Positions 2,902-49,945 of a stretch of 50,809 bases of DNA are shown piece after piece. Under the pieces are notes generated by a model, which made no database searches, had not been told where the DNA came from, and saw nothing but the letters and a program-made list of their open reading frames with translations. Each line of letters opens with the position of its first letter. The first letter of the stretch is position 1. Both the position numbers and the translations under genes were made by a program. This DNA comes from a phage. The stretch lies in the sequence record NC_136442.1. The stretch is one strand, 5' to 3'.

Positions 2902-2922
2902 GGGGCGTTGCGCCCCTTTTTT
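2902..2922. terminator. bidirectional intrinsic terminator after major tail gene
   Basis: GGGGCGTTGCGCCCC hairpin flanked by A-run upstream and T-run downstream. Confidence 0.8.
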
Positions 2923-2962
2923 CATTCCTGTAAAATCAATCTATCAAATAAATTAATTCCAC

Positions 2963-2995: not shown

Positions 2996-3313
2996 ATGGC
3001 AAAGATGAAACTAACGTTAGGCCCACTGCCTGATTTTAAACTGCCTGTTTCTTTCGTGCTTCCAAATGGTGATGAGCAAGTTATTGTTTTCACTGTGCGC
3101 CACAAGAAGGCAAGCGAGATTCACGAACGATACACGGCAGAAAAGCCGATGAGCGACGTAGAAATGATCACCTTCCTTGCTTCCGGTTGGGATCTGGAAG
3201 ATGAATTTAACGAGGAAAACGTTGCTAAATTGCTGGATTATTACCCTTCTGCGTCATTATCGCTGACTGGTCATTATATGAAAGCACTTGCGGGGCAGCG
3301 GGTAAAAAACTAA
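2996..3313 (+). CDS. tail assembly chaperone G
   Basis: 105-aa ORF between major tail and tape measure genes, ending in a slippery heptamer. Confidence 0.75.
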   Translation: MAKMKLTLGPLPDFKLPVSFVLPNGDEQVIVFTVRHKKASEIHERYTAEKPMSDVEMITFLASGWDLEDEFNEENVAKLLDYYPSASLSLTGHYMKALAGQRVKN

Positions 3314-3669: not shown

Positions 3670-6351
3670 ATGGCTGAAAAATACGCTGGCCTAACGCTAG
3701 GCGTTGACGTGTCGCAGGTCAACAATGCTGTTAAATCATTGCAGCAATTCAAGAAGGCAAACGACGACGCAAAAAAAAGCGTTAATGAATTTGTTGATTC
3801 TGAGGTTGTGGCCCGACAGCAAGCAAAACAGCTTGCAGAAGAACTGGCGCGCCAGAAAGCAGAATTTAAGAAAATCCAGGAGTCAATTGATCCCACCGCA
3901 TCAAAGATGGATAAGCTGAGAAAGGCAGCGACACAGCTTGATGCGCTATGGAAAAAGGGCGTTGTTCCTGATCAGACTTTTTTTGAGCTTGGGGCAATTC
4001 TTGAGACGCAGCAAAACAAGCTGATCGCAACCAAAAAAGCGATGACAGAGGAAGGCCGCGCGGCGCTTGAGGAATCAAAGAACAAGGCGCGTGCAGCGGA
4101 AGAGGCTAAAAAATTCGTCCAGGCTTTGCGTGAACAGGAAGAAGCAGCAGGAAAAAGCAAGTCTGAATTGCTGGAAATGAAAGCGGCACAGCTTGGAGTT
4201 AGCCAGGAGGCAGCACCTTACATCGCAAGGATGAAAGAGCAGGAAAAGCAGATCCAGAAACTTGGTATTTCTACAGGCCAATACAAACAAGCAATGCAGC
4301 AATTGCCAATGCAGATCACAGACGTGGTGACTTCACTTGCTTCTGGTATGCCCGTTTGGTTGGTCGCAGTCCAGCAGGGTGGACAGATCAAGGATTCTTT
4401 TGGTGGTGCATCCAATGCTTTAAAAGCGTTGCTATCTTTCCTGAATCCGGTAAACGTGGCGTTTGGTTTGCTTTCCGGCACGCTGGCAATTGCTGCATAT
4501 AATGCCCACAAAGCACAGACAGAGCTTGAGGCAATTAAAAAAACCGTTCAGGAAACAACTGGCTTGAGTGGTGAGTTTGCCGAAAAGATTGCTATAGGAA
4601 TCCAGGAGCTTTCCGACAAGACAGGCGAAAGCGCCGAAGATCTGGCAAAGGCTTACATAACAACGAAAGACGGCGCGAGCGAGGCGATTAAAAAACTGGT
4701 TGACGTTGGAATGACTTATGATGACGCAAAAAAGAAAGTCAACGAGTACAAGGGCGCGTCTAGCTTTGTCAGCTTGAATAACGAAATTGCAAACCACAAA
4801 AACAAAGTCCTTGAGCTGGGCGAGTCGTGGTATGAAGTTTTGAAAGCTAAGCGTGATTACGCTTCCCCGTCCGGCGGCCTGTTAGGTAAAGAGCTTGGAT
4901 ATGTTAATCCTATGCTTAAGTTTGCACTTAACACTTATGAAGACATTGGAAAGGTCGTAAAAGATGCGAATAAGGACATGGCGGAGCGAGCGGAGCGAAT
5001 CGACAAAGAAAACCTGTCATTAAACAGAGTGAGAGCGGCGCAAGAGGCTTTAAACAAAGCCATTGAGGATCAGAAGGGCGTGGCGCGTTCGGCTGATGAA
5101 GAACTGAAAAAGCGCGCGGCTGAAAACGTGGAGTTCAGACGCAAAGAGCTTGAGGAGATCAAGAAGCAGGAGCAGAAAAAGAAAGAGGCTAAAGGGGGAA
5201 TAGTTCGCGGCCCTACTGAGCAGCTTGATAAAGAGTTGTACGTTTTAAAAGCTCAACTGGAAACTCTTAAAGAGCATCGCACTGTTAACGATGTTATTTC
5301 TCGCCAGCGTAAATCTTTATGGAGCATCGAAAAGCAGATCGAGATCCTGGAGAATGCGCAGAGCAAGCGTAAATTGACCGGAGCGGAACAGGCGCTACTA
5401 AGCGAGCAAAAAGCCGTTCTTGAAATGGCAAGACAAAAAGCGGAGCTAGGGGATCAGATTGTTTTGCAGGAGCGCAAAAACAAACTGGAGCAAGATAGTC
5501 TTAAGTTTATCCGTGAAACGGAGGCGGCTATTGATGCGATTGGCCTTAAGCAACTTGGCTACACTGAAAAGCAGATCGAGCGTGAGCTAGAGTTACGCAA
5601 GCTGCGCACCGACTACGAGGCGCAAGGCGGAAGCGTTAGCGACGAAGTTTTTCAGCAAATGGAGACGAAACTTAAGCTGTATTACCAGGCACAAGACGAG
5701 GCGCAAGGCAACTGGTTAGCCGGAGCAAAGAACGCATGGGAGCTATTCGCGGAAGATGCAAACAATGCCTATGGCAATGTTCAGCAGATTGCAAGCGAGG
5801 CGTTAAACGGCCTTACAAACCAATTAGCGAATTTTATCGCTACTGGCAAGGCAAACTTTAAAGACTTCTCGACGGCTATCATCAAAATGATTATTCAGAT
5901 GATCACGAAAATGGTTGTCTTTAATGCGTTATCTGGCCTGATGGGTGGTCAAACCTGGACGATGGGGAGCTTGCTTAAGAATATTGGCGGATTTGCTGGC
6001 GGTGGATACACTGGCGACGGCGGGAAGTATGAGCCAGCCGGAATTGTTCATAAGGGTGAATTTGTCATGACGAAGGAGGCAACGCAGCGTATCGGAGTAG
6101 GCAACTTGTACCGCATGATGCGAGGCTATGCTAACGGCGGCGTTGTTGGTGGTTCCGGCTATACTGGCGGTGGCACTGTCACTGGTGGAGCACCTCAATT
6201 TAACATCGGTGGGATTGATGTTAGCATCAATAACGGCAATGATCCGAAGGGTATCGAAACTGGTGTTAAGATGATCTTTACTGATATGATTAGACGTTCC
6301 TGTATGCAGGGCGGGGAGGTTTACGAATTTGTTATGAGCAAGCGAGGTTGA
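3670..6351 (+). CDS. tail tape measure protein
   Basis: 893 aa, long coiled-coil-rich ORF with glycine-rich C-terminus, directly after G/GT. Confidence 0.85.
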   Translation: MAEKYAGLTLGVDVSQVNNAVKSLQQFKKANDDAKKSVNEFVDSEVVARQQAKQLAEELARQKAEFKKIQESIDPTASKMDKLRKAATQLDALWKKGVVPDQTFFELGAILETQQNKLIATKKAMTEEGRAALEESKNKARAAEEAKKFVQALREQEEAAGKSKSELLEMKAAQLGVSQEAAPYIARMKEQEKQIQKLGISTGQYKQAMQQLPMQITDVVTSLASGMPVWLVAVQQGGQIKDSFGGASNALKALLSFLNPVNVAFGLLSGTLAIAAYNAHKAQTELEAIKKTVQETTGLSGEFAEKIAIGIQELSDKTGESAEDLAKAYITTKDGASEAIKKLVDVGMTYDDAKKKVNEYKGASSFVSLNNEIANHKNKVLELGESWYEVLKAKRDYASPSGGLLGKELGYVNPMLKFALNTYEDIGKVVKDANKDMAERAERIDKENLSLNRVRAAQEALNKAIEDQKGVARSADEELKKRAAENVEFRRKELEEIKKQEQKKKEAKGGIVRGPTEQLDKELYVLKAQLETLKEHRTVNDVISRQRKSLWSIEKQIEILENAQSKRKLTGAEQALLSEQKAVLEMARQKAELGDQIVLQERKNKLEQDSLKFIRETEAAIDAIGLKQLGYTEKQIERELELRKLRTDYEAQGGSVSDEVFQQMETKLKLYYQAQDEAQGNWLAGAKNAWELFAEDANNAYGNVQQIASEALNGLTNQLANFIATGKANFKDFSTAIIKMIIQMITKMVVFNALSGLMGGQTWTMGSLLKNIGGFAGGGYTGDGGKYEPAGIVHKGEFVMTKEATQRIGVGNLYRMMRGYANGGVVGGSGYTGGGTVTGGAPQFNIGGIDVSINNGNDPKGIETGVKMIFTDMIRRSCMQGGEVYEFVMSKRG

Positions 6352-8866: not shown

Positions 8867-8914
8867 TGCCTTTATAATGTGCAAACCAAGAAACAGCACA
8901 AAAGGTTAAAAGTC

Positions 8915-12984: not shown

Positions 12985-13263
12985 TCACCCCCAAAAAGTA
13001 TATATATATCTTGAATCAGATCCAGAAAGCCCACTCCATGTAACGGTGTCGCCACTTACCCCTAAGTTTGGCGCTCCAGGGTCGCCACCACGCCAGGAAT
13101 TCATGCCAACATATATTGCTTTCAATGATTTACCTGGTGGCCTGTTTTGGTAAGTCTTGCTACCTGATGGCTGAGTGAATTTATCAAGGAAGAAAACAGG
13201 CGTTAAAAGTCCTGTAACTTCCCTTCCTCGATCGTCATATATTGCATAACCATATTGCGCCAT
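12985..13263 (-). CDS. hypothetical protein (92 aa), possibly N-terminal part of a frameshifted receptor-binding gene
   Basis: GAGGTG RBS; ends in TGA inside a TTTTTGGGGG run just upstream of the next ORF. Confidence 0.5.
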   Translation of the reverse strand: MAQYGYAIYDDRGREVTGLLTPVFFLDKFTQPSGSKTYQNRPPGKSLKAIYVGMNSWRGGDPGAPNLGVSGDTVTWSGLSGSDSRYIYTFWG

Positions 13264-13532: not shown

Positions 13533-13563
13533 CTTCAATACTCCTTAGTTGTCGTTGCCTGTA

Positions 13564-13606
13564 ACTATACACGATCCGACAAGCGGCGTTTAGCAAAAAG
13601 TGCTAC
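13564..13606 (-). promoter_or_regulatory. motif-type promoter cassette (variant GTAGCACTTTTTGCTAAAC, 18-nt spacer, TATAGT) for the lipoprotein gene
   Basis: Motif, spacing and -10-like hexamer read on the minus strand. Confidence 0.55.
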
Positions 13607-13975: not shown

Positions 13976-14003
13976 TTGACTAAATCAACCAAATGGCTAC
14001 AAT
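13976..14003 (+). promoter_or_regulatory. sigma70-type promoter TTGACT-16-TACAAT driving the exonuclease-Erf-SSB module
   Basis: Near-consensus -35 and -10 at correct spacing, 30 nt upstream of the RBS/ATG at 14034. Confidence 0.65.
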
Positions 14004-15422: not shown

Positions 15423-16079
<657 letters not shown>

Positions 16080-16122
16080 TAAACGGGGCGCTTGCGCCCC
16101 TTTTGTCATAGGAGAAAACAAA

Positions 16123-16575
16123 ATGCACGTTATTACAGGTGAGATCCGAAAAGAGCCAAAAGTAAAGCAAATGCCTAACGGCAGCACGCTATATGTTGTT
16201 GAGCTTTCCGAACGATATAAAGACCGTGAAGGTAATTGGCAGTATACAAACTATGTGTTTTTCTTTAACGCGAAAACAGACGGCCTGAATGGTTGGTATG
16301 CTGAGGCGTTCCAGGTAGGCAAGGTTATTTCTGTTTCCTGCGATACATTGCGAGTTGAAACGCGAGAATACAACGGAAAGATTTACAGCACAGTGCAGCC
16401 TGGCGGATTTGCAAATCTGCTATTTAGCCAGCGCGGAGAAAGCCAGCAGCAATATCAGCAGCGAACGCAAGGAGGCTGGGGGCAACCACAACAGCAACAG
16501 CAACAAAACCATCAACAGCAACCACAGCAAAGCAATCAGCCGCCGATTGACTTTGATGATGACATCCCTTTCTGA
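16123..16575 (+). CDS. ssb: single-stranded DNA-binding protein
   Basis: OB-fold-like N-terminus, Q-rich linker, acidic C-terminal tail DFDDDIPF typical of SSB. Confidence 0.8.
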   Translation: MHVITGEIRKEPKVKQMPNGSTLYVVELSERYKDREGNWQYTNYVFFFNAKTDGLNGWYAEAFQVGKVISVSCDTLRVETREYNGKIYSTVQPGGFANLLFSQRGESQQQYQQRTQGGWGQPQQQQQQNHQQQPQQSNQPPIDFDDDIPF

Positions 16576-16610: not shown

Positions 16611-18740
16611 TTTATCACTTAACTTTGAAATTAAATTTCTAATTTCGTTAATTTCTGATTTTAACATTTCTATTTCCTCTTGCTGTTTTTTTATTAATTC
16701 CTCTTGTCTATCTGAGTCATAGATCATCTCATTTATAGCATTTACAAGCAATGCAGTAACGCCGCTATAACTTACACCCAAGTAATCAGAGTCTGATATT
16801 TTGTAAACAGCCTCCGGTAAAACATTTTGCACATCTTGAGCTATTACCCCAGCCTCTTCTGAGTACAAAGAATGTTCATCTTCATCAATATTATTTCTCT
16901 TAAAATAAGTATAACCTTTTATTGATTTTACCTTATCTTTGGCTGATTTGATCTCTTTTAAATTTGCTTTAAGCCTGATGTCAGAAGTGCTAACCCATTG
17001 AACGCATGATGCGTAACCAGCATCGTTAAATGAGTAAATCGCCCCCCTTACATTAAATCGAGTATCACAAGATCCTGAACTATATCTAACAACATCAAGA
17101 CCAGCAACCCAATCTCCTCCCCATCTAACAGCCTTAAAAACGTTTGATGCTGCATCATCTCCTGGCAACTCAACAAGAAGGCCTGCCGCTCGATCCCTCC
17201 AGTCAACAAAGCCACCCCCAGATACTTGACCGCCAATTAGAGCATTGCCTCCGCCAATTCTAGATCCTGAAACTCTAATGCCATTTGCGTTATTATCAAT
17301 AGGCCATATGTTTAAAAGACCGTTAAGATGAAAGTTTTGAGGATCAAATGATGCAACGTTTCTACCATTACAAAAAACCTGCAATACTCCGTCGCCGCCT
17401 TGCTTAAACCCGGTGTCGCTATCACCTATAACTAACGAATTAGACCCAAGTGAATTTATAATGCCTCTACCAATTGTTATTGTATTGTAATTTATGGCGT
17501 TTCCGCTTTCGTCAAATTGATAATAGTTTGTATCTCCACCTTCTCTTGTTACCTGTATTGTTGCTTTAGCTGTACCACCTATAATTTCATTGTAGACCCT
17601 TGAGTATGAAAGCTGCACACCTTCTGCGTTCTTGTTTCTAAGGTAAAGAATGCCTGATGCTTCTCCGTTGTTGTTATCAAGATTTACCCCCAAGAATACA
17701 GGGATATGATTTGTCGCAAGCCCTAAATTGTGCCTTACTCCATCGGGAGTTGTTGCGCCTGTACCGCCAGCGCCAATAGAAAGCGCATATGTAGCGTTAT
17801 CACTATTACTTGCAACTCTCCATTCTCCATTGTTAGCAATCCTCAATTCATAGCTTGCTTGCGGATTAGTAAAGCTGTTGTAATCGCCAGGCGTTGAATG
17901 AGAAGCCGGATCATTGCTAATTACCGCTTGAACCTGCAACACTTTTCTTGCTTCAGCCTTATCAGTAAGATCATTAAGGTTTTGATCCTTATGGAGAATA
18001 TTTTCAGGATTTACTTGTTGCGCCCATTGCATAGCCTCATCTCTTGCAGATTCAGCGGCTGATTTTGCACTTTCAGCATAATTCTTGGCATTGTCAGCCT
18101 CATTTTTAGCATTAATTGCGCCATCTCTAGCCGATTCAGCCTCTGATTTAATGCTTGTAACCTCAACAACTGCAGAGTCCTTTATTTGCTGAGTCTGATC
18201 TTTAATTGATTGAGCCTCGTTTTTTATGGCGTTAGTTTCGCTTACTGCGTCATCTTTGATCTTCTGAGTTTCAGCTAGGGCAGAATCCTTTATCTGTTGA
18301 GTGTCATTTTTTAATTGCTCAGTGGCTGCGCGATCTGTTGCTACTTGTTGCGCAGACTCCTTAACTTGATTCACCAGATCCTTTAAGCCATCCAAATCAA
18401 AATCTTTAAAAAACTCTATTGCTTCTGCAATTTCTGTTTCCTTGCTCTGGTAATAACGCAAAGTTTCCGCTACATCCTGCGCAAGCCCGTCAATCGTTAA
18501 CGAGTCATGAAGCAAGATCAGGTAATTTGTTTGTTGAACTACTTCACCGCCAGTAGTAATGGCGCGAATGCTTGTATCGCTAATCACCTCTGTGATCACG
18601 GCAGCTTGCAAAGGTTGAGTAAGAAAGAAAATAGTTGCACCTGGGCGAATCAATGTTAATTGCTCGCGCCATTTTGTGTCGTAACCAGTAACATAACCTT
18701 GAGCGTCCATCGACGCTTGGCCTTGTCTGTAAATCGCCAT
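16608..18740 (-). CDS. tail fibre protein with C-terminal intramolecular chaperone (peptidase S74-like) domain
   Basis: 710 aa; central coiled-coil repeats and Gly-rich region; C-terminal chaperone-type segment ending ...[15 protein letters not shown]; start MAIYRQG after AGGAGGA RBS. Confidence 0.7.
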
Positions 18741-18757
18741 TTGTAAAATCCTCCTAA

Positions 18758-18778
18758 ATAGCACTTTTTGCTAATGAC
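18758..18778 (+). promoter_or_regulatory. 20-nt family motif (variant ATAGCACTTTTTGCTAATGAC) directly abutting the tail fibre RBS on the opposite strand
   Basis: Motif read directly; lies between the primase terminator and the tail fibre start. Confidence 0.55.
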
Positions 18779-18814
18779 AATGCAGATAATAGCATTTTCA
18801 AATGCAAAAAAAAA

Positions 18815-18840
18815 CCCCGCATAAGCGGGGCAATACTAGC
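18815..18840 (-). terminator. intrinsic terminator after primase gene
   Basis: CCCCGC-TTAT-GCGGGG hairpin followed by T9 on the minus strand. Confidence 0.8.
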
Positions 18841-19831: not shown

Positions 19832-20308
19832 TTAGCTATTCGTGCTGTTATCACCTTTGTAGAATCGTCCGCCTGGTTCGTAGTCTGAATTTTTGACTAC
19901 GCGCAACATTTCGTATTTGTCGCAACGGGTAGTAAGAGGCTTGCCGTTAGAATCAAACCGCAGATCTGGACGACAAAACGAGGCGCGGTATCCTTTGCAT
20001 CCATTATATTTGTAGTCGTTATGCACCTTTTGTGCTCCAGCGGCTGAAATCATACCACGCTTTCGCCACTGGTTAACGACTTGCTGAGATACGCGCAGAC
20101 GTCGAGCCATAGCAGGAACACCGCCGTAATACTCGATCAGAATGTCAAGGCGAGATTTTAGGCTTGCTTTTACCTCATCTCGCAGGATAAGAAATCCGGT
20201 TCGGTGTTTTCGTGGCTTTTTGTCTTTACCTCGTCGCGTTCCGTTGTTACCGTTAATAGTGCGCTTGTCGATCTCACCCGTAGACACTGCAATTCGTGCA
20301 TCTTTCAT
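19832..20308 (-). CDS. basic HTH DNA-binding protein (Cro/YdaS-like helix-turn-helix)
   Basis: GGVPAMARRLRVSQQVVNQWRKRG helix-turn-helix-like segment; arginine/lysine-rich N-terminus. Confidence 0.55.
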   Translation of the reverse strand: MKDARIAVSTGEIDKRTINGNNGTRRGKDKKPRKHRTGFLILRDEVKASLKSRLDILIEYYGGVPAMARRLRVSQQVVNQWRKRGMISAAGAQKVHNDYKYNGCKGYRASFCRPDLRFDSNGKPLTTRCDKYEMLRVVKNSDYEPGGRFYKGDNSTNS

Positions 20309-20319
20309 CTAGTCACCTC

Positions 20320-20363
20320 ATAGCATTTTTTGTTAAAACAGTTTATTGTAATGAGTCTATTAT
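20320..20363 (+). promoter_or_regulatory. motif-type promoter cassette (ATAGCATTTTTTGTTAAAAC, 18 nt, TATTAT) upstream of helicase
   Basis: Motif and spacing read directly; divergent to the HTH gene. Confidence 0.6.
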
Positions 20364-20395
20364 ATACTCCAAATGGCATTTTTTAAAGGTTTAAG

Positions 20396-22393: not shown

Positions 22394-22812
22394 TGGCTAT
22401 AACTGATAAAGGCGATTATCTTGAGTTTTACGAAAGGGATCCAACCGACACGAGAAGGGAAGTTAATCACCAGATAGATAGTTTTCAGTGGTTGACTTAT
22501 GCTCATCCTTATTTGCTGGCGTGGCATACGGTAAACGAGAATGAGAAGTCTAAAGCAACGGCGATGATTGATCAGCAGTCCGGCTTGGTTAAGGGAGTAA
22601 GCGATTTCATCATCCTGATTGGTTTAAACGGAAAATACCCCTTTGCAGCGATTGAGATCAAACGAGTGAATAAATCAGGCAAGGGGAAAGCATCACCAGT
22701 CAGCGATGAACAAAAGGCTTTTTTGCGTCGCGTTCGCAGCTTAGGAGGATTCGCTGCGGTAGCCTACGGATTCAATCAGTTTAAGTTGGCTATTGAATAC
22801 ATGCTTAAATAG
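22393..22812 (+). CDS. VRR-NUC domain nuclease
   Basis: GVSDF...IEIK PD-(D/E)XK-type motif in a roughly 140-aa protein after the helicase. Confidence 0.55.
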   Translation: MAITDKGDYLEFYERDPTDTRREVNHQIDSFQWLTYAHPYLLAWHTVNENEKSKATAMIDQQSGLVKGVSDFIILIGLNGKYPFAAIEIKRVNKSGKGKASPVSDEQKAFLRRVRSLGGFAAVAYGFNQFKLAIEYMLK

Positions 22813-22852
22813 CACTTTTTGTTAAAACTGGCGCGATGGATTGCGCCATAAT
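22809..22852 (+). promoter_or_regulatory. motif-type promoter cassette (motif, hairpin spacer, CATAAT) upstream of dam
   Basis: Consensus motif 22809-22828; inverted repeat GGCGCGATGGATTGCGCC in spacer; hexamer 22847-22852. Confidence 0.6.
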
Positions 22853-23622: not shown

Positions 23623-23880
23623 ATGAAAAAAGAGAGAAGCGTTTATTTAAATGAAACTGGCGAATGGTTGTTATTTCGCGCTATGGTGTGCGATGCACTT
23701 GATAAAAATCCTAACGTGAAAAAGATGATTGATTGCGATCCGTGGGAATTTTCAAGCGCATTAGATATGAGCTTTGAGGAGACAAAAAAACTCCCGCTTG
23801 AAAAATGGCACGAACAAATCAGAAATGACATGCAAGAGTTTGTCGATTCGTGGAATTTTCAGCACGGAATGATCCACTAA
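23623..23880 (+). CDS. hypothetical protein (85 aa)
   Basis: ORF with GGAG RBS; stop overlaps next motif. Confidence 0.55.
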   Translation: MKKERSVYLNETGEWLLFRAMVCDALDKNPNVKKMIDCDPWEFSSALDMSFEETKKLPLEKWHEQIRNDMQEFVDSWNFQHGMIH

Positions 23881-23923
23881 TAGCACTTTTTGTTAAAACG
23901 CCCGACCTAGTGTCGGGCATAAT
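23880..23923 (+). promoter_or_regulatory. motif-type promoter cassette (motif, hairpin GCCCGACCTAGTGTCGGGC, CATAAT)
   Basis: Read directly. Confidence 0.6.
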
Positions 23924-24461: not shown

Positions 24462-25577
24462 ATGAAAAATGTAAAAATTACAGATGAGAAATTCAAGATC
24501 GAACGGGCGGCAGGTAAGACATATAAACAGATCGCTCAAGAGTACGGAATGAATGTGAGAAGCGTCGAGCGTCGCGCGGCGCGTCTTGCAAAGCAAGGAC
24601 AGCTATCGACCATCGGAGCGCCTGGTTTTGGTGTTCATGGTGAGTCAGTAATGACTGACAAAGAAGGAAATATAATCCTCAAGTGGACCAAAACCAGCAA
24701 GGATAAAGAGCAATTAGAGGCATTGATGCGCGCAGCTATGGAGGCGTTTAGCGAGGAAGTGCCGCGATTAGATCCAGTTCCATTGCAGGAGCGTAATTAT
24801 AATGAAACGCTTTCATTGTATCCGATCTTTGACATGCACTTAGGCGCTATGGCCCATAAGCACGAATGCGGCGAAAATTGGGATACTGCGACGGCAGAGC
24901 GCGTTATGAATAACTTTATCGACTATGCTTTGATGTGCGCGCCGGACAGCGAAAAGGCTGTTATCCTGATTGGTGGCGATATGCTTCATAGCGATGGCCT
25001 GGAGGCTGTGACACCTGCAAGCGGTCACGTACTTGATCAAGATAGCCGATATGCAAAATTGGTTTACGTTGCAATCCGTGCAATGCGTCGCGCAATTAAT
25101 AAAATGCTGTTAAAGCATAAACATGTTGAGGTTCAGATCGTAGAGGGGAATCACGACCAATCAGGAATGATTTGGCTACGCGCAGCAATGGCGGCAGCAT
25201 ATGAGAACGAGCCGCGCGTTTACGTTGATGTTTCTCCTCGCGTTGTTCACCACACGCAATACGGAAAAACTTTCCTTGCGTACCATCACGGGCACACAGT
25301 GCGTAAACCGGAGACTTTGCTAATGATGTGCGCGTCAGATTGGCGGGAGGACTTCGGAAACTCAAAAACGATGTATGCGCACGTAGGGCACTGGCATCAC
25401 CAGACCGTGACGGAAACGTCGCTTGGGATCGTGGAGGTGCATAGCACCCTGGCGGCAAAAGACGCATACGCCGCGCGCGGTGGCTGGAGATCTCGACGCC
25501 GTGCAGCGGTTATCATTTACGACAAAGAGCATGGAGAAGTTGGGCGATTTGTTCACTATCCAGAAATGATGAATTGA
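24462..25577 (+). CDS. calcineurin-like metallophosphoesterase with N-terminal HTH-like segment
   Basis: FDMHLG, GGDMLHSD, EGNHDQ, YHHGH metallophosphatase motifs; N-terminal KTYKQIAQEYGMNVRSVERRAARL. Confidence 0.6.
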   Translation: MKNVKITDEKFKIERAAGKTYKQIAQEYGMNVRSVERRAARLAKQGQLSTIGAPGFGVHGESVMTDKEGNIILKWTKTSKDKEQLEALMRAAMEAFSEEVPRLDPVPLQERNYNETLSLYPIFDMHLGAMAHKHECGENWDTATAERVMNNFIDYALMCAPDSEKAVILIGGDMLHSDGLEAVTPASGHVLDQDSRYAKLVYVAIRAMRRAINKMLLKHKHVEVQIVEGNHDQSGMIWLRAAMAAAYENEPRVYVDVSPRVVHHTQYGKTFLAYHHGHTVRKPETLLMMCASDWREDFGNSKTMYAHVGHWHHQTVTETSLGIVEVHSTLAAKDAYAARGGWRSRRRAAVIIYDKEHGEVGRFVHYPEMMN

Positions 25578-27060: not shown

Positions 27061-27096
27061 AATTTTACCTTTTGGTTGTTTCGTTTCGATGAAACA

Positions 27097-27140
27097 AATA
27101 TACCCGACACTAGGCCGGGCGTTTTAACAAAAAATGCTAT
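27097..27140 (-). promoter_or_regulatory. motif-type promoter cassette (ATAGCATTTTTTGTTAAAAC, hairpin spacer, TATATT)
   Basis: Read on minus strand; hairpin GCCCGGCCTAGTGTCGGGT nearly identical to the one at 23900. Confidence 0.6.
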
Positions 27141-29258: not shown

Positions 29259-29302
29259 ATTTTAACGGCCCAATACTACCCCGTTTTGTCAAAAAGTGCT
29301 AT
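29259..29302 (-). promoter_or_regulatory. motif-type promoter cassette (variant ATAGCACTTTTTGACAAAAC, 18 nt, TAAAAT)
   Basis: Read on minus strand. Confidence 0.6.
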
Positions 29303-29932: not shown

Positions 29933-29976
29933 ATTATGCCAGGTTTTTACACCTGGCTTTTAACAAAAAGTGCTAT
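29933..29976 (-). promoter_or_regulatory. motif-type promoter cassette (motif, hairpin CCAGGTGTAAAAACCTGG, CATAAT)
   Basis: Read on minus strand. Confidence 0.6.
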
Positions 29977-31965: not shown

Positions 31966-32009
31966 AATATACCATTCAGGCGCACATCGTTTTTAACAAA
32001 AAGTGCTAT
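31966..32009 (-). promoter_or_regulatory. motif-type promoter cassette (motif with extra A, TATATT)
   Basis: Read on minus strand. Confidence 0.6.
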
Positions 32010-32471: not shown

Positions 32472-32515
32472 AATGTACAGGAATACGAGGATTGAGTTTT
32501 AACAAAAAGTGCTAT
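32472..32515 (-). promoter_or_regulatory. motif-type promoter cassette (consensus motif, 18 nt, TACATT)
   Basis: Read on minus strand; leader ACACGCATCGACAACGAA. Confidence 0.6.
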
Positions 32516-33741: not shown

Positions 33742-33775
33742 TGCTATCTCCTGAGCGGTTCGTTTCGATGTGTGT

Positions 33776-33819
33776 AATGTACCCGATCAGGTGGCCTGAG
33801 TTTTAACAAAAAGTGCTAT
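33776..33819 (-). promoter_or_regulatory. motif-type promoter cassette (consensus motif, 18 nt, TACATT)
   Basis: Read on minus strand; leader ACACACATCGAAACGAAC. Confidence 0.6.
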
Positions 33820-34880: not shown

Positions 34881-35137
34881 AAAAGGCGTTAATCGGTGTT
34901 TTGGTGGCAATGACACTCCTGACCGGATGCGAAAAGGCATCAGAATCAACGGTTGTCGTAGGCGTGGAGTCAGATTTCAAAGTCGGCCGCCTGTTCACTG
35001 TTGACGGATGCACAGCATACAGATTCTATGATAACGGTCGCGCGATCTATTACACCAATTGCAAAGGCGCAACGGATAGCACGTACAACAGCGGAAAGAA
35101 CGTAATGCACCAGCAAGTCACAACAGATATTAAATAG
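34877..35137 (+). CDS. lipoprotein (86 aa)
   Basis: Signal MKKALIGVLVAMTLLTGC with lipobox; ATGA overlap with upstream gene. Confidence 0.6.
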   Translation: MKKALIGVLVAMTLLTGCEKASESTVVVGVESDFKVGRLFTVDGCTAYRFYDNGRAIYYTNCKGATDSTYNSGKNVMHQQVTTDIK

Positions 35138-35177
35138 CACTTTTTGTTAAAACGCCAGGCGCAAAGCCTGGCATAAT
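35134..35177 (+). promoter_or_regulatory. motif-type promoter cassette (consensus motif, hairpin GCCAGGCGCAAAGCCTGGC, CATAAT)
   Basis: Read directly; leader AGCCTCATCGAAACGAGA then GAGGAA RBS. Confidence 0.65.
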
Positions 35178-35209
35178 AGCCTCATCGAAACGAGATTGAG
35201 GAAACAAAA

Positions 35210-35596: not shown

Positions 35597-35640
35597 ATAG
35601 CACTTTTTGTTAAAACTCAAAAACGACAACCAGGCATAAT
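35597..35640 (+). promoter_or_regulatory. motif-type promoter cassette (consensus motif, 18 nt, CATAAT)
   Basis: Read directly; leader contains hairpin GGGGCGGCACGGCGTCGCCC. Confidence 0.6.
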
Positions 35641-35695: not shown

Positions 35696-36586
35696 ATGTT
35701 AAAACTTACTGACATTAAATTCCCGATCACCTTCGAATCTCGCGGCGTTGGTCATTTCATGTTTACCGACGAGAAGACATGCACTAAGTTTAACGAATAC
35801 GGAAGTCCAAACGCTTCAACAATGGAGATTGAACACTTCATTGAAGCGCACAATAAACACTACAACTCACTCAGAGACTACGGTTACGCAATGCCAGGCT
35901 ACACCTGTTTCCACTACAAGCCATATAAAGGCCAGGTGTTGCCAGTGCGCTCACCGGAACGCGCAGAGATTCCGATGGTCGAGATGAAAACCTGCGACTA
36001 TAAAAAATTGTGGTGCTTAAGTGTGGACAATATCAAGTATCCGATCACGTTCCGCTCCGCTGGTAATTCAACGATTCGCTACACATCGCGCGACAATGGC
36101 GTTTATAGCAGTGGTCAGAAATCAGAGCTTAAGGTGGATTTCTTTGTTAATGGTCATAATAAATACAATCCGCACAATGAAAAAGATAAGATTTACTATG
36201 TGGAAGACATTACAAAACACTTGTTTGGAGAAACTCCATTCGGCGGCGGAAAGACGTCAATTCAAAAAATAATTGGCGAGGAGATCCACAAAGCGGCTGC
36301 CGAAATGAAAGCGCCTGGAGGCTGGCGTATTGATAAGAGCGCCTTTGCAAATCAAGAAATCGTAACGCAGGGCGCGATTGAAGATATGCCAGTTGCAGCC
36401 ACGCTAAAAGGAGTCCGGCTTGATGATGGTGTGTGGTTTGAATTAACGGCTACACCAAAGACGATCGAGATTCATGATGATGTTGTTATCCTCCTGCTTC
36501 ACTACGGCGGCACTAAAAATCGGACTGTTGCAGGTGAGATCAGCATCAAGCGCGGAACGACGGTTAAGTGGAAGGTAAAGATTTGA
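35696..36586 (+). CDS. hypothetical protein (296 aa) with internal tandem duplication
   Basis: Segments DIKFPITFESRGVGH and NIKYPITFRSAGNST repeated within the protein; AGGAGA RBS. Confidence 0.65.
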   Translation: MLKLTDIKFPITFESRGVGHFMFTDEKTCTKFNEYGSPNASTMEIEHFIEAHNKHYNSLRDYGYAMPGYTCFHYKPYKGQVLPVRSPERAEIPMVEMKTCDYKKLWCLSVDNIKYPITFRSAGNSTIRYTSRDNGVYSSGQKSELKVDFFVNGHNKYNPHNEKDKIYYVEDITKHLFGETPFGGGKTSIQKIIGEEIHKAAAEMKAPGGWRIDKSAFANQEIVTQGAIEDMPVAATLKGVRLDDGVWFELTATPKTIEIHDDVVILLLHYGGTKNRTVAGEISIKRGTTVKWKVKI

Positions 36587-36662: not shown

Positions 36663-36815
36663 ATGGCTACCTGGATTTTGCTGATTCTTATGATTGATGG
36701 CGGCGTTGACCATATCGAAATGAATAGCCAGCAATCTTGCATTGAGGCACGAGAGCAGATCAAGAACAACAACAGGTTTTATGCGTACACTCACACGCTA
36801 TGTATTAAGAAATAG
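36663..36815 (+). CDS. hypothetical small hydrophobic protein (50 aa)
   Basis: GAGGTGAGAG RBS; stop TAG lies inside next motif; below ORF-track cutoff. Confidence 0.45.
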   Translation: MATWILLILMIDGGVDHIEMNSQQSCIEAREQIKNNNRFYAYTHTLCIKK

Positions 36816-36854
36816 CACTTTTTGTTAAAACTCAAATGTGGGGCCAGGTATAAT
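36812..36854 (+). promoter_or_regulatory. motif-type promoter cassette (consensus motif, TATAAT inside hairpin GGCCAGG...GGCC)
   Basis: Read directly. Confidence 0.6.
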
Positions 36855-36884
36855 GGCCTCACTTTCAACGAAGGAGATAAAACG

Positions 36885-37334: not shown

Positions 37335-38045
37335 ATGAAAAAATACACTTTCGAACTGTGGGGCAAGAAGTACGAATTTACGACAAGCAAGCCGATTGTT
37401 ATCGTTGACCTAGACGGCACACTATCGGACGGATCGCATCGTTTGCATTTGCTGCCAACTGAAAACTTGCACCTTACGGAATCGTGGCGCGAGTTTAACA
37501 GGGCCGCCGCCGGAGATTCACCTATTAAAAGCACTATCGCGGTTATTAACGGTTTATGGGTGTCGGGATTTGCCATCGTCATCTTGACCGGACGCAGCGA
37601 CGAGGTTCGCTATGAAACCTGCAAATGGTTGAATGAGAACGGCGTGAAGTTTGACGAAATCATCATGCGCCGCCATGAGGACAACCGAAAGGATACGGTT
37701 ATTAAAGAAGAAGCCTTGCGCGCTATTGGCCTGGACAACATTGTTTGCGCCTTTGACGATTCGCCGAACGTGGTTAAGCACTTCCGCAGCTTGGGGATCA
37801 CAACCTATCAGGTCACGGAATACGACAAGCCACACGCTCACATACAATCTCACGGCGTGGAATCAATCAAGATAACGAAGCGCGCCCGATTCGTTGGCAG
37901 CAAAGATAGCCTTGTCAATGCCAGCTTTACCAGAGGAATAGCCTATGACGTTGTTTCTTATCATGACAAGAGTTTTATAGTTCATGATGATTCTGGATGC
38001 GCCTGGTCATTCAATCATAGTGACGGCGATTTTGTTAATGCGTAA
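37335..38045 (+). CDS. HAD-superfamily phosphatase (nucleotidase or polynucleotide 3-phosphatase-like)
   Basis: Motif I VIVDLDGTLSDG (DxDGT) near the N-terminus; ATG at 37335 chosen over TTG at 37320. Confidence 0.55.
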   Translation: MKKYTFELWGKKYEFTTSKPIVIVDLDGTLSDGSHRLHLLPTENLHLTESWREFNRAAAGDSPIKSTIAVINGLWVSGFAIVILTGRSDEVRYETCKWLNENGVKFDEIIMRRHEDNRKDTVIKEEALRAIGLDNIVCAFDDSPNVVKHFRSLGITTYQVTEYDKPHAHIQSHGVESIKITKRARFVGSKDSLVNASFTRGIAYDVVSYHDKSFIVHDDSGCAWSFNHSDGDFVNA

Positions 38046-38088
38046 TAGCACTTTTTGTTAAAACATCTCAACGGGCTTGCGGTATAGT
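38045..38088 (+). promoter_or_regulatory. motif-type promoter cassette (consensus motif, 18 nt, TATAGT within hairpin GGGCTT...AAGCCC)
   Basis: Read directly; leader CATCAACAACAAACGAGGA. Confidence 0.6.
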
Positions 38089-38119
38089 AAGCCCATCAAC
38101 AACAAACGAGGATTAAATC

Positions 38120-38968: not shown

Positions 38969-39559
38969 ATGAAGCGAGACATTATTATCCTTAATGGGCC
39001 ACCTGGTTGTGGAAAGGACACTATTGCAGCTTACCTAACGGGCCATCGTTACCCAGCGGTTAAGGCGTCATTCAAACAGCCGATGTTCGATATTGCGTTT
39101 TCCATGCTGGGCGTGTACCGATACGATGAATTTATGGACCTGTACAACGACCGAGAACAAAAAGAAAAGCCTCAAGTTATCTTAGGCGGCAAGTCACCTC
39201 GACAATTCATGATCTGGATTAGCGAGGATGTAATGAAGCCAGTTTTTGGGGATCACTATTTCGGGCGTCGAATGGTTGAAGAGATTCACGAGATGTACCG
39301 AGATTTGGCGGTTGTGATCAGTGATGGCGGATTCCCCGAAGAAATCAAGCCGCTGGTTAAGGCGGGGCATGAGGTGCATATTTGCCGATTGCATCGCGAC
39401 GGCTTCACGTTTGCTGGCGATTCGAGAGACTACATTGACCTGAGCGGTTATCACTATCGAATCCATCACTATGATTTCCACTTGCAGGACGGTAAGCCGG
39501 AACTGGCTGTAAACGAGATCGTCAATGCTGTCAAATGGAAGCACACACAGATTAAATAG
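38969..39559 (+). CDS. P-loop nucleotide kinase (dNMP kinase-like)
   Basis: Walker A NGPPGCGKDT near the N-terminus; GGGGAGAATAATC RBS. Confidence 0.6.
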   Translation: MKRDIIILNGPPGCGKDTIAAYLTGHRYPAVKASFKQPMFDIAFSMLGVYRYDEFMDLYNDREQKEKPQVILGGKSPRQFMIWISEDVMKPVFGDHYFGRRMVEEIHEMYRDLAVVISDGGFPEEIKPLVKAGHEVHICRLHRDGFTFAGDSRDYIDLSGYHYRIHHYDFHLQDGKPELAVNEIVNAVKWKHTQIK

Positions 39560-39599
39560 CACGAATTGCTAAACGCGGGGTTATCGGCCCCGCTATAAT
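39556..39599 (+). promoter_or_regulatory. motif-type promoter cassette (variant ATAGCACGAATTGCTAAAC, hairpin CGGGGTTATCGGCCCCG, TATAAT)
   Basis: Read directly. Confidence 0.55.
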
Positions 39600-40558: not shown

Positions 40559-40849
40559 ATGGCAAACAAAACTTACCGCAAACTACTGGTTAACGCTTTT
40601 GAAAATATCGCGCAGTGTAACAAGTGGAACGACTCTAAACACTCGCCAATCACAATGAAGCGCGCCGGATTCAAAAATGCTCGTTCATGGGCGCGAGCTT
40701 TCGCAGCTTGCTATATGCCGGATGGTGGACTAGGAGCGATGAACGAGTTTTTGATCAACATGATAGAGGAAGCTGCGCGAGATGATCGACCGCTGACACA
40801 GCGAGATTTTGATGATTTCGCGCGCGATGAGCTTTACTATCTGAGCTAA
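40559..40849 (+). CDS. hypothetical protein (96 aa)
   Basis: ORF ends at TAA adjacent to next motif. Confidence 0.55.
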   Translation: MANKTYRKLLVNAFENIAQCNKWNDSKHSPITMKRAGFKNARSWARAFAACYMPDGGLGAMNEFLINMIEEAARDDRPLTQRDFDDFARDELYYLS

Positions 40850-40892
40850 TAGCACTTTTTGTTAAAACTTCCGCAAGGGCATTTGGTAAAGT
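40849..40892 (+). promoter_or_regulatory. motif-type promoter cassette (consensus motif, 18 nt, TAAAGT within hairpin AGGGCA...TGCCCT)
   Basis: Read directly. Confidence 0.6.
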
Positions 40893-40924
40893 GCCCTTAT
40901 TGAAGCGAAACAGAGGAAAGCGCA

Positions 40925-43502: not shown

Positions 43503-45070
43503 TGATCATATGGGAAGATTTGACGGCGGCGCAAAAGCGAGCCATTAAAGAAATCAGCGAGCATTCATTCGAAAAGATGATCAGAATCTGGTTCCAATTG
43601 TTGCAGGGGCAAAAATTCCAGAGCAACTGGCATTTTAGCTTATTGTGCAGTGAGGTAGAGAAGATCATCAATGGAGAGTCGCAGAATGTGATTTTCAACA
43701 TTACGCCAGGTAGCGGTAAGACTGAGATTTTCTCGATCCACATGTCACCATACGCGTCATTGAAAAGCCGGAAGGTGAGAAACCTTAACCTTTCGTTTAG
43801 TGATGGCCTTGTCCAGCAAAACAGCAACCGGATAAAGGAGATTATTGGTTCTCCTGAGTGGCAAGAGCTATGGCCTGGAAAACTGGCAAAGGCGAGCGCT
43901 AAAGATCTGATAGTCACCGAAGGCGGCAAGGTTAAATTGCAAGTTAACTCACGTTCTATTGGCGGCCAGGTAACAGGTTTGCGTGGCGGCTATATGGACG
44001 ATGGTTTTACTGGTATGCTGGTTCTTGACGATCCAGACAAGCCGGATGATATGCTTTCTAAGGTAAAGCGCGAGGCTATTCACATGCGGTTAAAAAACAC
44101 AGTGCGATCGCGTCGAATGAAAGACACCACGCCAATTGTTATGGTGCAACAGCGACTACACGTTAATGATTCCACCTGGTTCATGCTTAATGGCGGGATG
44201 GGTGGTATTGAGTTTAAAGTCGTGAGCATTCCGGCGCTGGTTACGAAAGAATACCGCGAAACGCTTCCTGATTGGTTGAAGCCTGAATTTGATCGTGATG
44301 TGCTGTCAAGTAAGCCAGTGATGATAGATGGCGTCGCTCATTATTCATTTTGGCCTGCGAAGGAAAGCGCTGAGGAGTTGCTTGCATTGCGCAATGCAGA
44401 TCCTTACACGTTCTCCAGCCAATACCAACAGCAACCAATCGCGCTTGGCGGGAACGTGTTTAAAACAGAGTGGTTCCAGTATTACGGCAGCGGCGAAAAG
44501 TGCGCACTACCAAAACCGGATCGCTTTGAATACACATTTATTACTGGAGATACCGCGCAGAAGGCCGGAGAGCTTAACGACTATTCGGTTTTTTGTTATT
44601 GGGGGATGTATAAGAATCGCGTTTACTTCATTGATGGCATTCGCGGAAAGTGGGAAGCGCCGGATCTTGAATTAAATTTTATTGCCTTCGTTAACCAGTG
44701 CTGGAAGCGCAATAAGGAGTGTGGCAGCTTGCGACGTATCCACATTGAGGATAAGGCCAGCGGCACGGGTTTGATTCAGGGGGCCAAAAAGAAGATCCCG
44801 ATTGATATAAATCCCGTTCAGCGAAGCAATGACAAGGTGACGCGAGCAATGGACGCCGCGCCAGTAATGAGGGCCGGACGTGTGGCGCTGCCAGAAAATC
44901 ACCCAATGCTGCCTGAGATACTGGCAGAGGTTGCAGCATTCACTTTTGATGATTCTCATCCCCATGATGATATTGTCGATAATATAGTTGATGCTGTTAA
45001 CGTCGAAATGAACTTGGCAGATGATCCGGTGGCAAGGATGAAAAAGCTGGCTGGTCTACGCAATAAATAG
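43502..45070 (+). CDS. terL: terminase large subunit
   Basis: ATPase-type motifs (PGSGKT Walker A-like, VLDDPD Walker B-like) and C-terminal acidic nuclease-type region; 522 aa. Confidence 0.8.
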   Translation: MIIWEDLTAAQKRAIKEISEHSFEKMIRIWFQLLQGQKFQSNWHFSLLCSEVEKIINGESQNVIFNITPGSGKTEIFSIHMSPYASLKSRKVRNLNLSFSDGLVQQNSNRIKEIIGSPEWQELWPGKLAKASAKDLIVTEGGKVKLQVNSRSIGGQVTGLRGGYMDDGFTGMLVLDDPDKPDDMLSKVKREAIHMRLKNTVRSRRMKDTTPIVMVQQRLHVNDSTWFMLNGGMGGIEFKVVSIPALVTKEYRETLPDWLKPEFDRDVLSSKPVMIDGVAHYSFWPAKESAEELLALRNADPYTFSSQYQQQPIALGGNVFKTEWFQYYGSGEKCALPKPDRFEYTFITGDTAQKAGELNDYSVFCYWGMYKNRVYFIDGIRGKWEAPDLELNFIAFVNQCWKRNKECGSLRRIHIEDKASGTGLIQGAKKKIPIDINPVQRSNDKVTRAMDAAPVMRAGRVALPENHPMLPEILAEVAAFTFDDSHPHDDIVDNIVDAVNVEMNLADDPVARMKKLAGLRNK

Positions 45071-45096
45071 CACTAATTGCTAAAAAGTTATATAAT
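45067..45096 (+). promoter_or_regulatory. motif variant (ATAGCACTAATTGCTAAAAAG) with TATAAT upstream of portal
   Basis: Read directly; hexamer lies 3 nt upstream of a terminator hairpin. Confidence 0.5.
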
Positions 45097-45098
45097 CA

Positions 45099-45124
45099 AG
45101 GCTGGATTTTTCCAGCCTTTTTTA
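45099..45124 (+). terminator. intrinsic terminator between terL and portal
   Basis: AGGCTGGA-TTTT-TCCAGCCT hairpin plus TTTTTT. Confidence 0.75.
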
Positions 45125-49888: not shown

Positions 49889-49916
49889 TTGACGCTTTAA
49901 CAAAAAGTGCTATCAT
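49889..49916 (+). promoter_or_regulatory. sigma70-type promoter TTGACG-16-TATCAT upstream of major capsid gene
   Basis: Read directly; spacer is formed by the family motif in reverse orientation. Confidence 0.5.
49895..49913 (-). promoter_or_regulatory. 20-nt family motif, reverse orientation (CTTTAACAAAAAGTGCTAT)
   Basis: Read directly. Confidence 0.6.
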
Positions 49917-49919
49917 CTA

Positions 49920-49945
49920 GGCCGTTACATTTAACGGCCTTTTAT
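49920..49945 (+). terminator. terminator-like hairpin immediately upstream of the capsid RBS
   Basis: GGCCGTTACATTTAACGGCC plus TTTTAT. Confidence 0.55.

Follow-up and report, generated by a model that had tools for sequence, protein, structure and literature searches.

Marbox-like repeats in two orientations at predicted promoters of a T1-like coliphage

A marbox is the asymmetric DNA site of MarA, SoxS, and Rob, proteins of the AraC family, and its consensus in E. coli is GCAHWWWWTGYYAAA (PMC6900184). A MarA-family protein binds as a monomer, one helix-turn-helix (HTH) of which reads GCAC and the other AAA, 7 bp off. In class II promoters, a forward marbox lies near -41 and is followed by a canonical -10 hexamer (PMC10268841, PMC12052159), without a recognisable -35 hexamer (on average, 1.9 of its six positions match; PMC10268841). 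This is the case for micF, the box of which (CACT-7X-AAA) is located at about -41 (PMC8811837). Marboxes may also occupy the core of a promoter. In pbpG, a marbox over the promoter spacer leads to direct repression by MarA and SoxS, and in lpxC a marbox overlaps the core of promoter P1 and is at the class II position for promoter P2 (both PMC12052159). For T1-like phages, the 2024 re-annotation of phage TLS (PMC11447400) described 21-nt direct repeats (aaATAGCACnnnTTGnTAAAA) in 18 intergenic copies, with similar repeats in T1, Rtp, and Rogue1; their function was left open, a stoperator, an enhancer site, and an UP element being mentioned as guesses, and all copies were said to be co-directed with transcription. 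The same element is the subject of the present analysis, which concerns sequence record NC_136442.1 (50,809 nucleotides, the whole of which is referred to as the window). The window is a complete or nearly complete genome of a T1-like coliphage (Drexlerviridae); over 5 kb, it shares 99.4% identity with Escherichia phage tiwna (genus Warwickvirus). Its copies of the repeat either face the downstream gene or stand in the opposite orientation close to the Shine-Dalgarno (SD) sequence or inside the promoter of a gene, and the repeat itself has the appearance of a marbox.

The repeat is abundant in the window. Its 12-mer AAAAAGTGCTAT was found 18 times with at most one mismatch, versus 0.55 expected, and none of 100 shuffled sequences contained as many; the 18-mer TTTAACAAAAAGTGCTAT was found 20 times with at most four mismatches. 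The core of the phage repeat (GCACTTTTTGTTAAA) agrees with the marbox consensus at 15 of 15 positions, and the core variant of T1 and TLS (GCACGAATTGCTAAA) at 14 of 15. Similarly, a scan of the window with the marbox consensus, allowing one mismatch, returned 24 matches (18 perfect ones and six with one mismatch), versus 2.33 expected (0/100 shuffles). Box coordinates refer to the 18-mer or to the 20-bp box. Among 93 copies from five genomes, GCAC and AAA, with 7 bp between them, never vary, and neither do the positions A1, C7, T11, A17, and A18, which are non-symmetric; the phage box, CACT-TTTTGTT-AAA, has the asymmetric bipartite build of a marbox. Furthermore, phages of Escherichia, Klebsiella (phage 1513), and Cronobacter (ESP2949-1) and Vibrio phage Vc1 all have the identical box. 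An asymmetric box that stays invariant among phages with many enterobacterial hosts suggests that its binder is a conserved protein of the host. A phmmer search of all six-frame open reading frames (ORFs) of the window retrieved no MarA/SoxS-like (AraC-type) protein (best E = 0.18); the validity of the MarA and SoxS queries was confirmed by their mutual identity of 42%, as published, and by the match of MarA to Pfam HTH_18. The repeat is probably a marbox, that is, an asymmetric site for host MarA, SoxS, and Rob (RamA in Klebsiella), placed at class II geometry.

This geometry is displayed by 16 copies in the window that face the downstream gene (Table 1), in the order ATAGCACTTTTTGTTAAAAC, 18 bp, TAtAaT, about 6 nt, CATCGAAAC, SD sequence, and ATG. 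All promoters and transcription starts reported here are predictions from the sequence. The -35 hexamer is absent from these units. The consensus of their -10 hexamers is TAtAaT, and a predicted start 7 or 8 nt past the -10 places the centre of the box at -40.5 or -41.5. In the window, T1, Rtp, and Klebsiella phage 1513 together, 53 of 70 copies possess a -10 hexamer at exactly this distance; across six genomes, a -10-like hexamer was found exactly 18 bp past the box in 77 of 108 consensus matches, versus a background of 2.2% per position, and the -35 position in those units matches TTGACA at about 1.8 of six positions on average (0 to 3 in most units). Both traits of class II promoters, a forward box near -41 and a canonical -10 without a -35, are hence present in the phage units. 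The original prediction had proposed a generic upstream promoter element on this strand; the match argues instead for a host marbox, a monomeric AraC-family site at class II geometry.

The nearest single likeness is with micF, the promoter of which reads ACAGCACTGAATGTCAAAAC-N18-TAGAAT-N7-+1 in the E. coli chromosome. It has 15 of 20 box positions in common with the phage unit (ATAGCACTTTTTGTTAAAAC), as well as the orientation of the box, with GCAC distal and AAA proximal, the 18-bp gap, and the lack of a -35, and its RNA polymerase-RamA complex has been described (PMC8811837). In contrast with micF, the phage has about 16 such units in a virulent genome of 51 kb, with near-consensus boxes, the TAG of which is often the stop codon of the upstream gene, and with a conserved leader start (CATCGAAAC). 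The middle promoters of phage T4, in which the MotA box replaces the -35, likewise combine a -10 without a -35 with an activator box that defines a temporal promoter class. However, T4 uses its own activator MotA, with co-factor AsiA, and a box at -30, whereas the phage box is near -41 and is a putative host-activator site, no phage AraC-type protein having been found. Stoperators of the mycobacteriophage L5 type are asymmetric sites, oriented with transcription, at which the phage's own repressor silences read-through. The phage boxes are asymmetric and mostly co-oriented with transcription. Their fixed 18-bp link to a -10 hexamer points to initiation rather than to a block, and no L5-like repressor or integrase occurs in the annotation tables of tiwna, T1, and TLS. 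The TLS paper mentions neither a marbox nor a fixed distance to the -10 nor inverted copies, and its own table assigns repeat DR7, which is at the capsid gene, to the opposite strand (PMC11447400). New with respect to the literature searched appear to be the marbox identity, the micF-type geometry, and the split between activating early copies and core-overlapping copies at late genes and the regulator gene. The repeat itself had been described before, with no function assigned, and a virulent phage would here have taken over, on a large scale, the known system of the mar/sox/rob promoter classes.

Several additional traits of the class II units were seen. In most units, and in all genera examined, the leader starts with CATCGA(A/C)A(A/C)GAA, 6-7 nt past the predicted -10 (for example, 27078-27092, 33757-33770, and 35184-35196 in the window); transcription is predicted to start there, with a 5' end rich in C and A. 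Many units contain an inverted repeat of 5-7 bp near the -10 (for example, 38063-38100, 40867-40900, and 27097-27122 in the window; 3094-3130 in Rtp; 4361-4395 in T1). In some units, this repeat lies 5' of the -10 and is terminator-like, with the -10 as T-tract, several of them being annotated as terminators in the T1 record. In other units, it flanks the -10 (GGGGTA...TACCCC, GGGCTT...AAGCCC, and AGGGCA...TGCCCT), the arms differing from unit to unit and staying complementary. Strong activator-independent intergenic early promoters are few, namely those at 13976 (recE), 20387 (regulator gene), and 34359 (left end), and the same three are found in TLS; they would fit a cascade.

The remaining copies concern late genes and a gene for a Cro-like HTH regulator. 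As originally predicted, the boxes at the side tail fibre, tape-measure chaperone, and HTH regulator genes are 0-3 nt away from the SD sequence, and the box at the capsid gene is located in a promoter spacer. The proposal that the motif has two uses, according to position and orientation, was borne out too, as was the compact unit of the HTH regulator and helicase genes with one common motif, which consists of two opposed promoters and a single box. These boxes all lie in or just 3' of sigma-70-type promoters, and they are kept across genera while their flanks diverge. None of them is spaced from the adjacent gene as a class I or class II box would be. Similarly, no class I promoter was found 55-85 bp 3' of the backward boxes at the chaperone, fibre, and regulator genes, and the sole candidate at the capsid gene has its -10 over the ATG. 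The TLS, ESP2949-1, and ACG-M12 loci were compared by eye.

At the tail fibre gene, the gene strand reads ATTAGCAAAAAGTGCTAT-tta-GGAGG-N8-ATG, which leaves 3 nt between the box and the SD sequence. The predicted extended -10 puts the marbox at about +5 to +22, with its centre at +13. The order of terminator, promoter, box, and SD sequence also occurs in T1, Rtp, ACG-M12, and Henu7, the equivalents of the promoter being TGcTATAAT (Henu7), TGcTACAAT (Rtp and ACG-M12), and TTGCAA-17-TAAAAT (T1). The box is kept in five of seven genera, with intact half-sites and a variable central triplet and flanks, and on the plus strand of the window it is not followed by a -10 hexamer at 18 bp. A second, partial copy of the box end (gAAAATGCTATtat; 18786-18797, minus strand) makes up the extended -10 of the fibre promoter, and several late promoters of the family have an extended -10 of the form TGCTAT(N)AT. 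Within the coding sequence of the tail fibre gene, and co-oriented with it, a further perfect match to the marbox consensus (GCAATTAATGCTAAA) is located at 18105-18119 (minus strand), which may be due to chance.

At the capsid gene, the backward marbox (49894-49913; 18-mer 49896-49913) fills the promoter spacer, with its centre at about -19, and this arrangement is kept in five of eight genera (also in T1, TLS, Henu7, and ESP2949-1). Two further copies of this kind, not listed in the original prediction, are forward boxes at the tail-tip J gene and ahead of the portal gene (Table 1). At the tail-tip J gene, the box is in the opposite, forward orientation; it is preceded by a terminator and then TATAAT (8873-8878), and the layout, with (TG)TATAAT and the box 2-4 nt before the start codon, is kept in T1 (25019-25038) and TLS (24906-24926). 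The order of promoter, terminator-like hairpin, SD sequence, and gene recurs at the capsid (49889-49945), portal (45087-45120), ssb (16024-16110), and fibre (18926-18810) genes, and strong sigma-70-like promoters are found just 5' of hairpins that also end the preceding gene.

At the regulator gene, the box (20320-20337 for the 18-mer, minus-strand reading) is directly followed by GAGGTGA and the ATG. The -10 of the regulator promoter, which corresponds to promoter P57 of TLS, overlaps the -10 of the helicase class II unit on the opposite strand. The marbox is at about +16 to +33 of the regulator promoter (centre +24) and adjoins the SD sequence of the regulator gene in all eight genera compared. 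The promoter spacer contains the palindrome AAATGgCATTT, a candidate operator for the Cro-like regulator itself. At the corresponding place in TLS (P57; about 35890-35900), AAATGcCATTT occurs; other inverted repeats are found there in T1 (GTAACGTTTAC) and Klebsiella phage 1513 (CGCATAGTTGCG), and these may vary in step with the recognition helix of the regulator, which is itself variable. About 850 records carry this regulator gene, and the most conserved parts of the protein family are a basic N-terminal segment (DKRTINGNNGTRRGKDKKPRK; residues 14-33, of low model confidence) and a C-terminal segment (GYRASFCRPDLRFDSNGKPL; residues 106-129), not the HTH.

At the tape-measure chaperone gene, the box, situated between the major tail gene and the chaperone gene, is directly followed by AAGGAG and the ATG. 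On the other strand, it is followed by a -10-like hexamer at the class II distance, which is TAAGAT at equal spacing in T1, with the same layout. The predicted sigma-70 promoter of the chaperone gene is weak; it has equivalents in T1, TLS, Henu7, ESP2949-1, and Klebsiella phage 1513, and it puts the box at about +22 to +39 (centre +30). The antisense class II promoter would give an RNA of about 40 nt (2931 to 2893, minus strand) up to the bidirectional terminator, complementary to the 3' end of the major tail messenger RNA (mRNA). In T1, the minus-strand hairpin at this site is not followed by a T-tract. In Rtp (16303-16380) and ACG-M12 (13125-13200), a forward class II unit occupies the position of the box and drives an extra small gene between the major tail and chaperone genes.

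Table 1. Genes, marbox-like boxes, predicted promoters, and terminators in the window (promoter formulas give the spacer length in bp)
Feature	Coordinates	Strand	Basis or remark
Tape-measure (tail) chaperone gene	ATG 2996	+	tiwna annotation
Backward marbox between major tail and chaperone genes	2962-2981 (18-mer 2964-2981)	box sense -, gene +	15/15 to consensus
-10-like TAGATT, putative antisense class II promoter into terminator	2938-2943	-	exactly 18 bp past the 20-bp box
Weak predicted sigma-70 promoter of chaperone gene, TTGCGC-17-TAAAAT	2908-2936	+	8/12; -35 in terminator stem
Bidirectional terminator-like hairpin	2900-2918	both strands called	
Forward marbox-like ACAGCACAAAAGGTTAAAAG at tail-tip J gene	8893-8912	+	2 nt before ATG 8915; SD (AAGG) inside
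Class II unit (marbox to -10)	13563-13606	-	
Side tail fibre gene	start codon 18740-18738	-	tiwna annotation
SD GGAGG (18754-18750) and start codon (18740-18738) of tail fibre gene	18738-18754	-	
Backward marbox ATAGCACTTTTTGCTAATGA 5' of tail fibre gene	18758-18777 (18-mer 18758-18775)	box sense +, gene -	14/15 to GCAHWWWWTGYYAAA
Predicted extended -10 of fibre promoter, TGcTATTAT	18786-18794	-	read from sequence
Intrinsic terminator past primase gene, 5' of fibre promoter	18814-18831	-	
"Transcriptional regulator" gene (158 amino acids, Cro-like HTH)	19832-20308, ATG 20308	-	tiwna annotation, fold and homologue searches
Class II unit of helicase gene (marbox 20320-20339, 18 bp, -10 TATTAT 20358-20363)	20320-20363	+	
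Sigma-70 promoter of regulator gene, TTTAAA-17-TATAAT	20359-20387	-	promoter scan
Unique palindrome AAATGgCATTT in regulator promoter spacer	20371-20381	none	sole perfect copy in window
Helicase gene	start 20396	+	tiwna annotation
Class II unit (marbox, 18 bp, CATAAT)	22809-22852	+	
Class II unit	23880-23923	+	
Class II unit	27097-27140	-	
Class II unit	29259-29302	-	
Class II unit	29933-29976	-	
Class II unit	31966-32009	-	
Class II unit	32472-32515	-	
Class II unit	33776-33819	-	
Class II unit	35134-35177	+	
Class II unit	35597-35640	+	
Class II unit, 17-bp gap	36812-36855	+	
Class II unit	38045-38088	+	
Class II unit, GAA-type box	39556-39599	+	box as in T1, TLS, Rtp
Class II unit	40849-40892	+	
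Forward marbox overlapping terminase stop codon and -35/spacer of TATAAT	45067-45086	+	ahead of hairpin and portal gene
Capsid promoter, TTGACG-16-TGcTATCAT	49889-49916	+	promoter scan, 10/12 matches with TG
Major capsid protein gene	start 49959	+	tiwna annotation

The explanation that we prefer combines activation of early class II promoters by the marbox with inverted boxes that serve as operators or promoter-interference devices; taken as a whole, it is held with moderate confidence, the chances being evenly balanced. In this mechanism, a host MarA-like protein would fire the 16 class II promoters and hence the early and replication genes of the phage. At the capsid and fibre promoters, an occupied box would stand in the way of RNA polymerase. 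Protein bound to the regulator or chaperone box would, in addition, recruit polymerase to the opposing class II promoter, the -10 of which overlaps or abuts the sigma-70 -10. In this way, one host protein would activate the early genes and keep the promoters of the regulator, capsid, and tail genes repressed. Repression by backward boxes over the core promoter reportedly also occurs in rob, purA, and hdeA. As in pbpG, the core of the promoter is overlapped at the capsid and fibre genes, the capsid box being backward in a 16-bp spacer and the fibre box being in the region that polymerase covers. The overlap is partial or absent at the regulator and chaperone genes, the boxes of which (+16 to +39) are further 3' than in any case that could be documented. 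As in lpxC, the regulator/helicase and chaperone/antisense pairs have one box for two promoters; unlike in lpxC, the two phage promoters of a pair are opposed, one on each strand, and their -10 hexamers overlap or are adjacent. Repression by the inverted copies is a plausible part of this mechanism, given just short of an even chance.

Several points weigh against the preferred explanation. First, MarA and SoxS are scarce in unstressed cells. Rob is reported to be sequestered and inactive without an inducer (PMC12052159). Taken together, this leaves it doubtful which host protein would serve about 16 promoters early in infection. Second, at +22 to +39 (chaperone gene) or +16 to +33 (regulator gene), it is doubtful that an activator bound as a monomer would by itself form a roadblock. 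Third, a host protein that persists would keep the capsid and fibre promoters repressed, and late relief would need a further step. Fourth, the inverted boxes are not found everywhere: the chaperone box is present in only two of eight genera, and TLS and ESP2949-1 keep the fibre promoter and lack the box. Lastly, the searchable literature yielded no binding, transcript-mapping, or genetic data for T1-like phages. Likewise, no transcriptomes or mapped start sites of these phages, and no publications that link them with marboxes or with MarA, SoxS, or Rob, were found in the literature searched.

The fourth point is also what would be expected if the inverted copies were idle with respect to the adjacent gene, being class II promoters of the other strand (helicase gene; chaperone antisense) or decayed remnants that touch the SD sequence as a result of compaction. 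Indeed, an intact -10 at an 18-bp gap is present on the other strand at the regulator and chaperone sites, and Rtp and ACG-M12 have a forward unit in place of the chaperone box. In addition, among 14 copies that are co-directed with the upstream ORF, the ATAG end of the box supplies the stop codon with its own TAG in nine and is 0 or -1 nt from the stop codon in five. In relatives, the box stands further off the SD sequence, with a gap of 7-9 nt in T1 and Rtp for the fibre gene and of 9 nt in T1 for the chaperone gene. In the preferred explanation too, contact with the SD sequence is mainly a matter of genome compaction, since the box end is flush with stop codons in these 14 copies and the gap grows in relatives. 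However, in no genome is the fibre box followed by a -10 on the other strand, and it is kept in five genera nonetheless, its half-sites being intact; the capsid box stays in the promoter spacer in five genera; T1, TLS, and the window all retain the J-gene box; and each late-gene box coincides with a sigma-70-type promoter. Idle inverted copies are regarded as a rather unlikely explanation.

A tentative and more far-reaching form of the preferred explanation, to which we give a low probability, would make host MarA/SoxS/Rob a master developmental switch. About 16 early promoters would be fired and the capsid, fibre, tail tip, chaperone, and regulator genes held down through boxes in or behind conventional promoters, until the near-consensus boxes of the replicated genomes, numbering in the thousands, titrate the activator and free the late promoters.

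It is improbable that the inverted box instead supplies an extended -10 (TGcTATnnn), as the adjacent gene's own promoter. This would suit the capsid gene, where TGcTAT is part of TTGACG-16-TATCAT and is kept with the hexamers TATTAT, TATATT, and TATGAT in T1, TLS, and ESP2949-1, respectively, and the fibre promoters of several genera, which use TGcTAT(A/T)AT. The hexamers in the boxes of the fibre, chaperone, and regulator genes, however, lack the essential final T in most genomes (TATTTA, TATAAG, TATGAG, and TATAGG), and a start 7 nt further on would fall inside or past the SD sequence.

The position of the box next to the SD sequence had led to the original prediction that the motif, as part of the 5' untranslated region (UTR), acts as a translational or transcriptional operator. 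Predicted sigma-70 promoters 5' of the boxes of the regulator, fibre, and chaperone genes indicate that these boxes are probably transcribed into the 5' UTR. An RNA operator of translation, acting through a protein or through pairing with the complementary motif on read-through early mRNAs, could build on this, as the box would be within 0-3 nt of the SD sequence and the early read-through transcripts would carry an 18-nt perfect complement. Nevertheless, neither a common sequence nor a common structure was found at the SD sequence. The putative 5' UTRs are without significant structure, folding no better than shuffled sequences (z = -0.8, 0.0, and +1.8), the gap to the SD sequence varies from 0 to 9 nt between genera, and the element matches a DNA-binding consensus. 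Moreover, the J-gene box is in the complement orientation, with the SD sequence inside it, which leaves DNA occupancy, rather than an RNA sequence, as the common feature. Translational control through the box is very unlikely, and a transcriptional operator would be the better reading of the two.

Equally remote is the possibility that the phage's own Cro-like HTH regulator (T1 gp23 family) binds the box as a dimer, on the dyad TAGCA-N5-TG(C/T)TA, activating from about -41 and repressing other genes or itself at the inverted sites. The protein is predicted to have an all-alpha Cro fold (AlphaFold mean pLDDT of 86; best structural matches Xfaso-1 Cro and N15 Cro), its gene has one of the few strong sigma-70 promoters of the genome and adjoins a box in every genus, and the partial dyad is present in 96-99% of the copies at four position pairs. 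Yet, the dyad is broken by the invariant A1, C7, T11, A17, and A18, with 0% symmetry at the pairs 1/17 and 7/11. Furthermore, a Cro/CI-type operator is a dyad with a specificity that tracks the recognition helix, whereas here the helix varies among 36 homologues and the box is identical in their genomes, including that of Vibrio phage Vc1. The phage units follow micF exactly in the box, its orientation, and the 18-bp gap, and the regulator's own promoter spacer holds a separate, unique palindrome. Klebsiella phage RSU-F4K5, considered for co-variation of helix and box, was set aside, as it falls outside the Drexlerviridae, is without the box, and encodes only a short HTH protein. Other known elements were rejected, namely a sigma-54 promoter (wrong spacing, invariant GG missing), an IHF site (two core mismatches), a T4 MotA box (wrong position), TTGnTA as a -35 (a 22-bp spacer would be needed), and an UP element (invariant GCAC left unexplained).

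If activation by the marbox and a negative role of the inverted copies are true, most early transcription in a large family of virulent phages would pass through the multidrug-resistance regulators of the host, and the inverted copies would be the negative half of the circuit. This would bear on phage therapy in combination with antibiotics, on the contamination of fermenters by T1, and on the timing of gene expression in phages without a polymerase or sigma factor of their own. If, moreover, the host regulators were the master switch, phage growth would be tuned by antibiotic, oxidative, and bile-salt stress, and the phage would be a sink for the multidrug-resistance regulators of its host.

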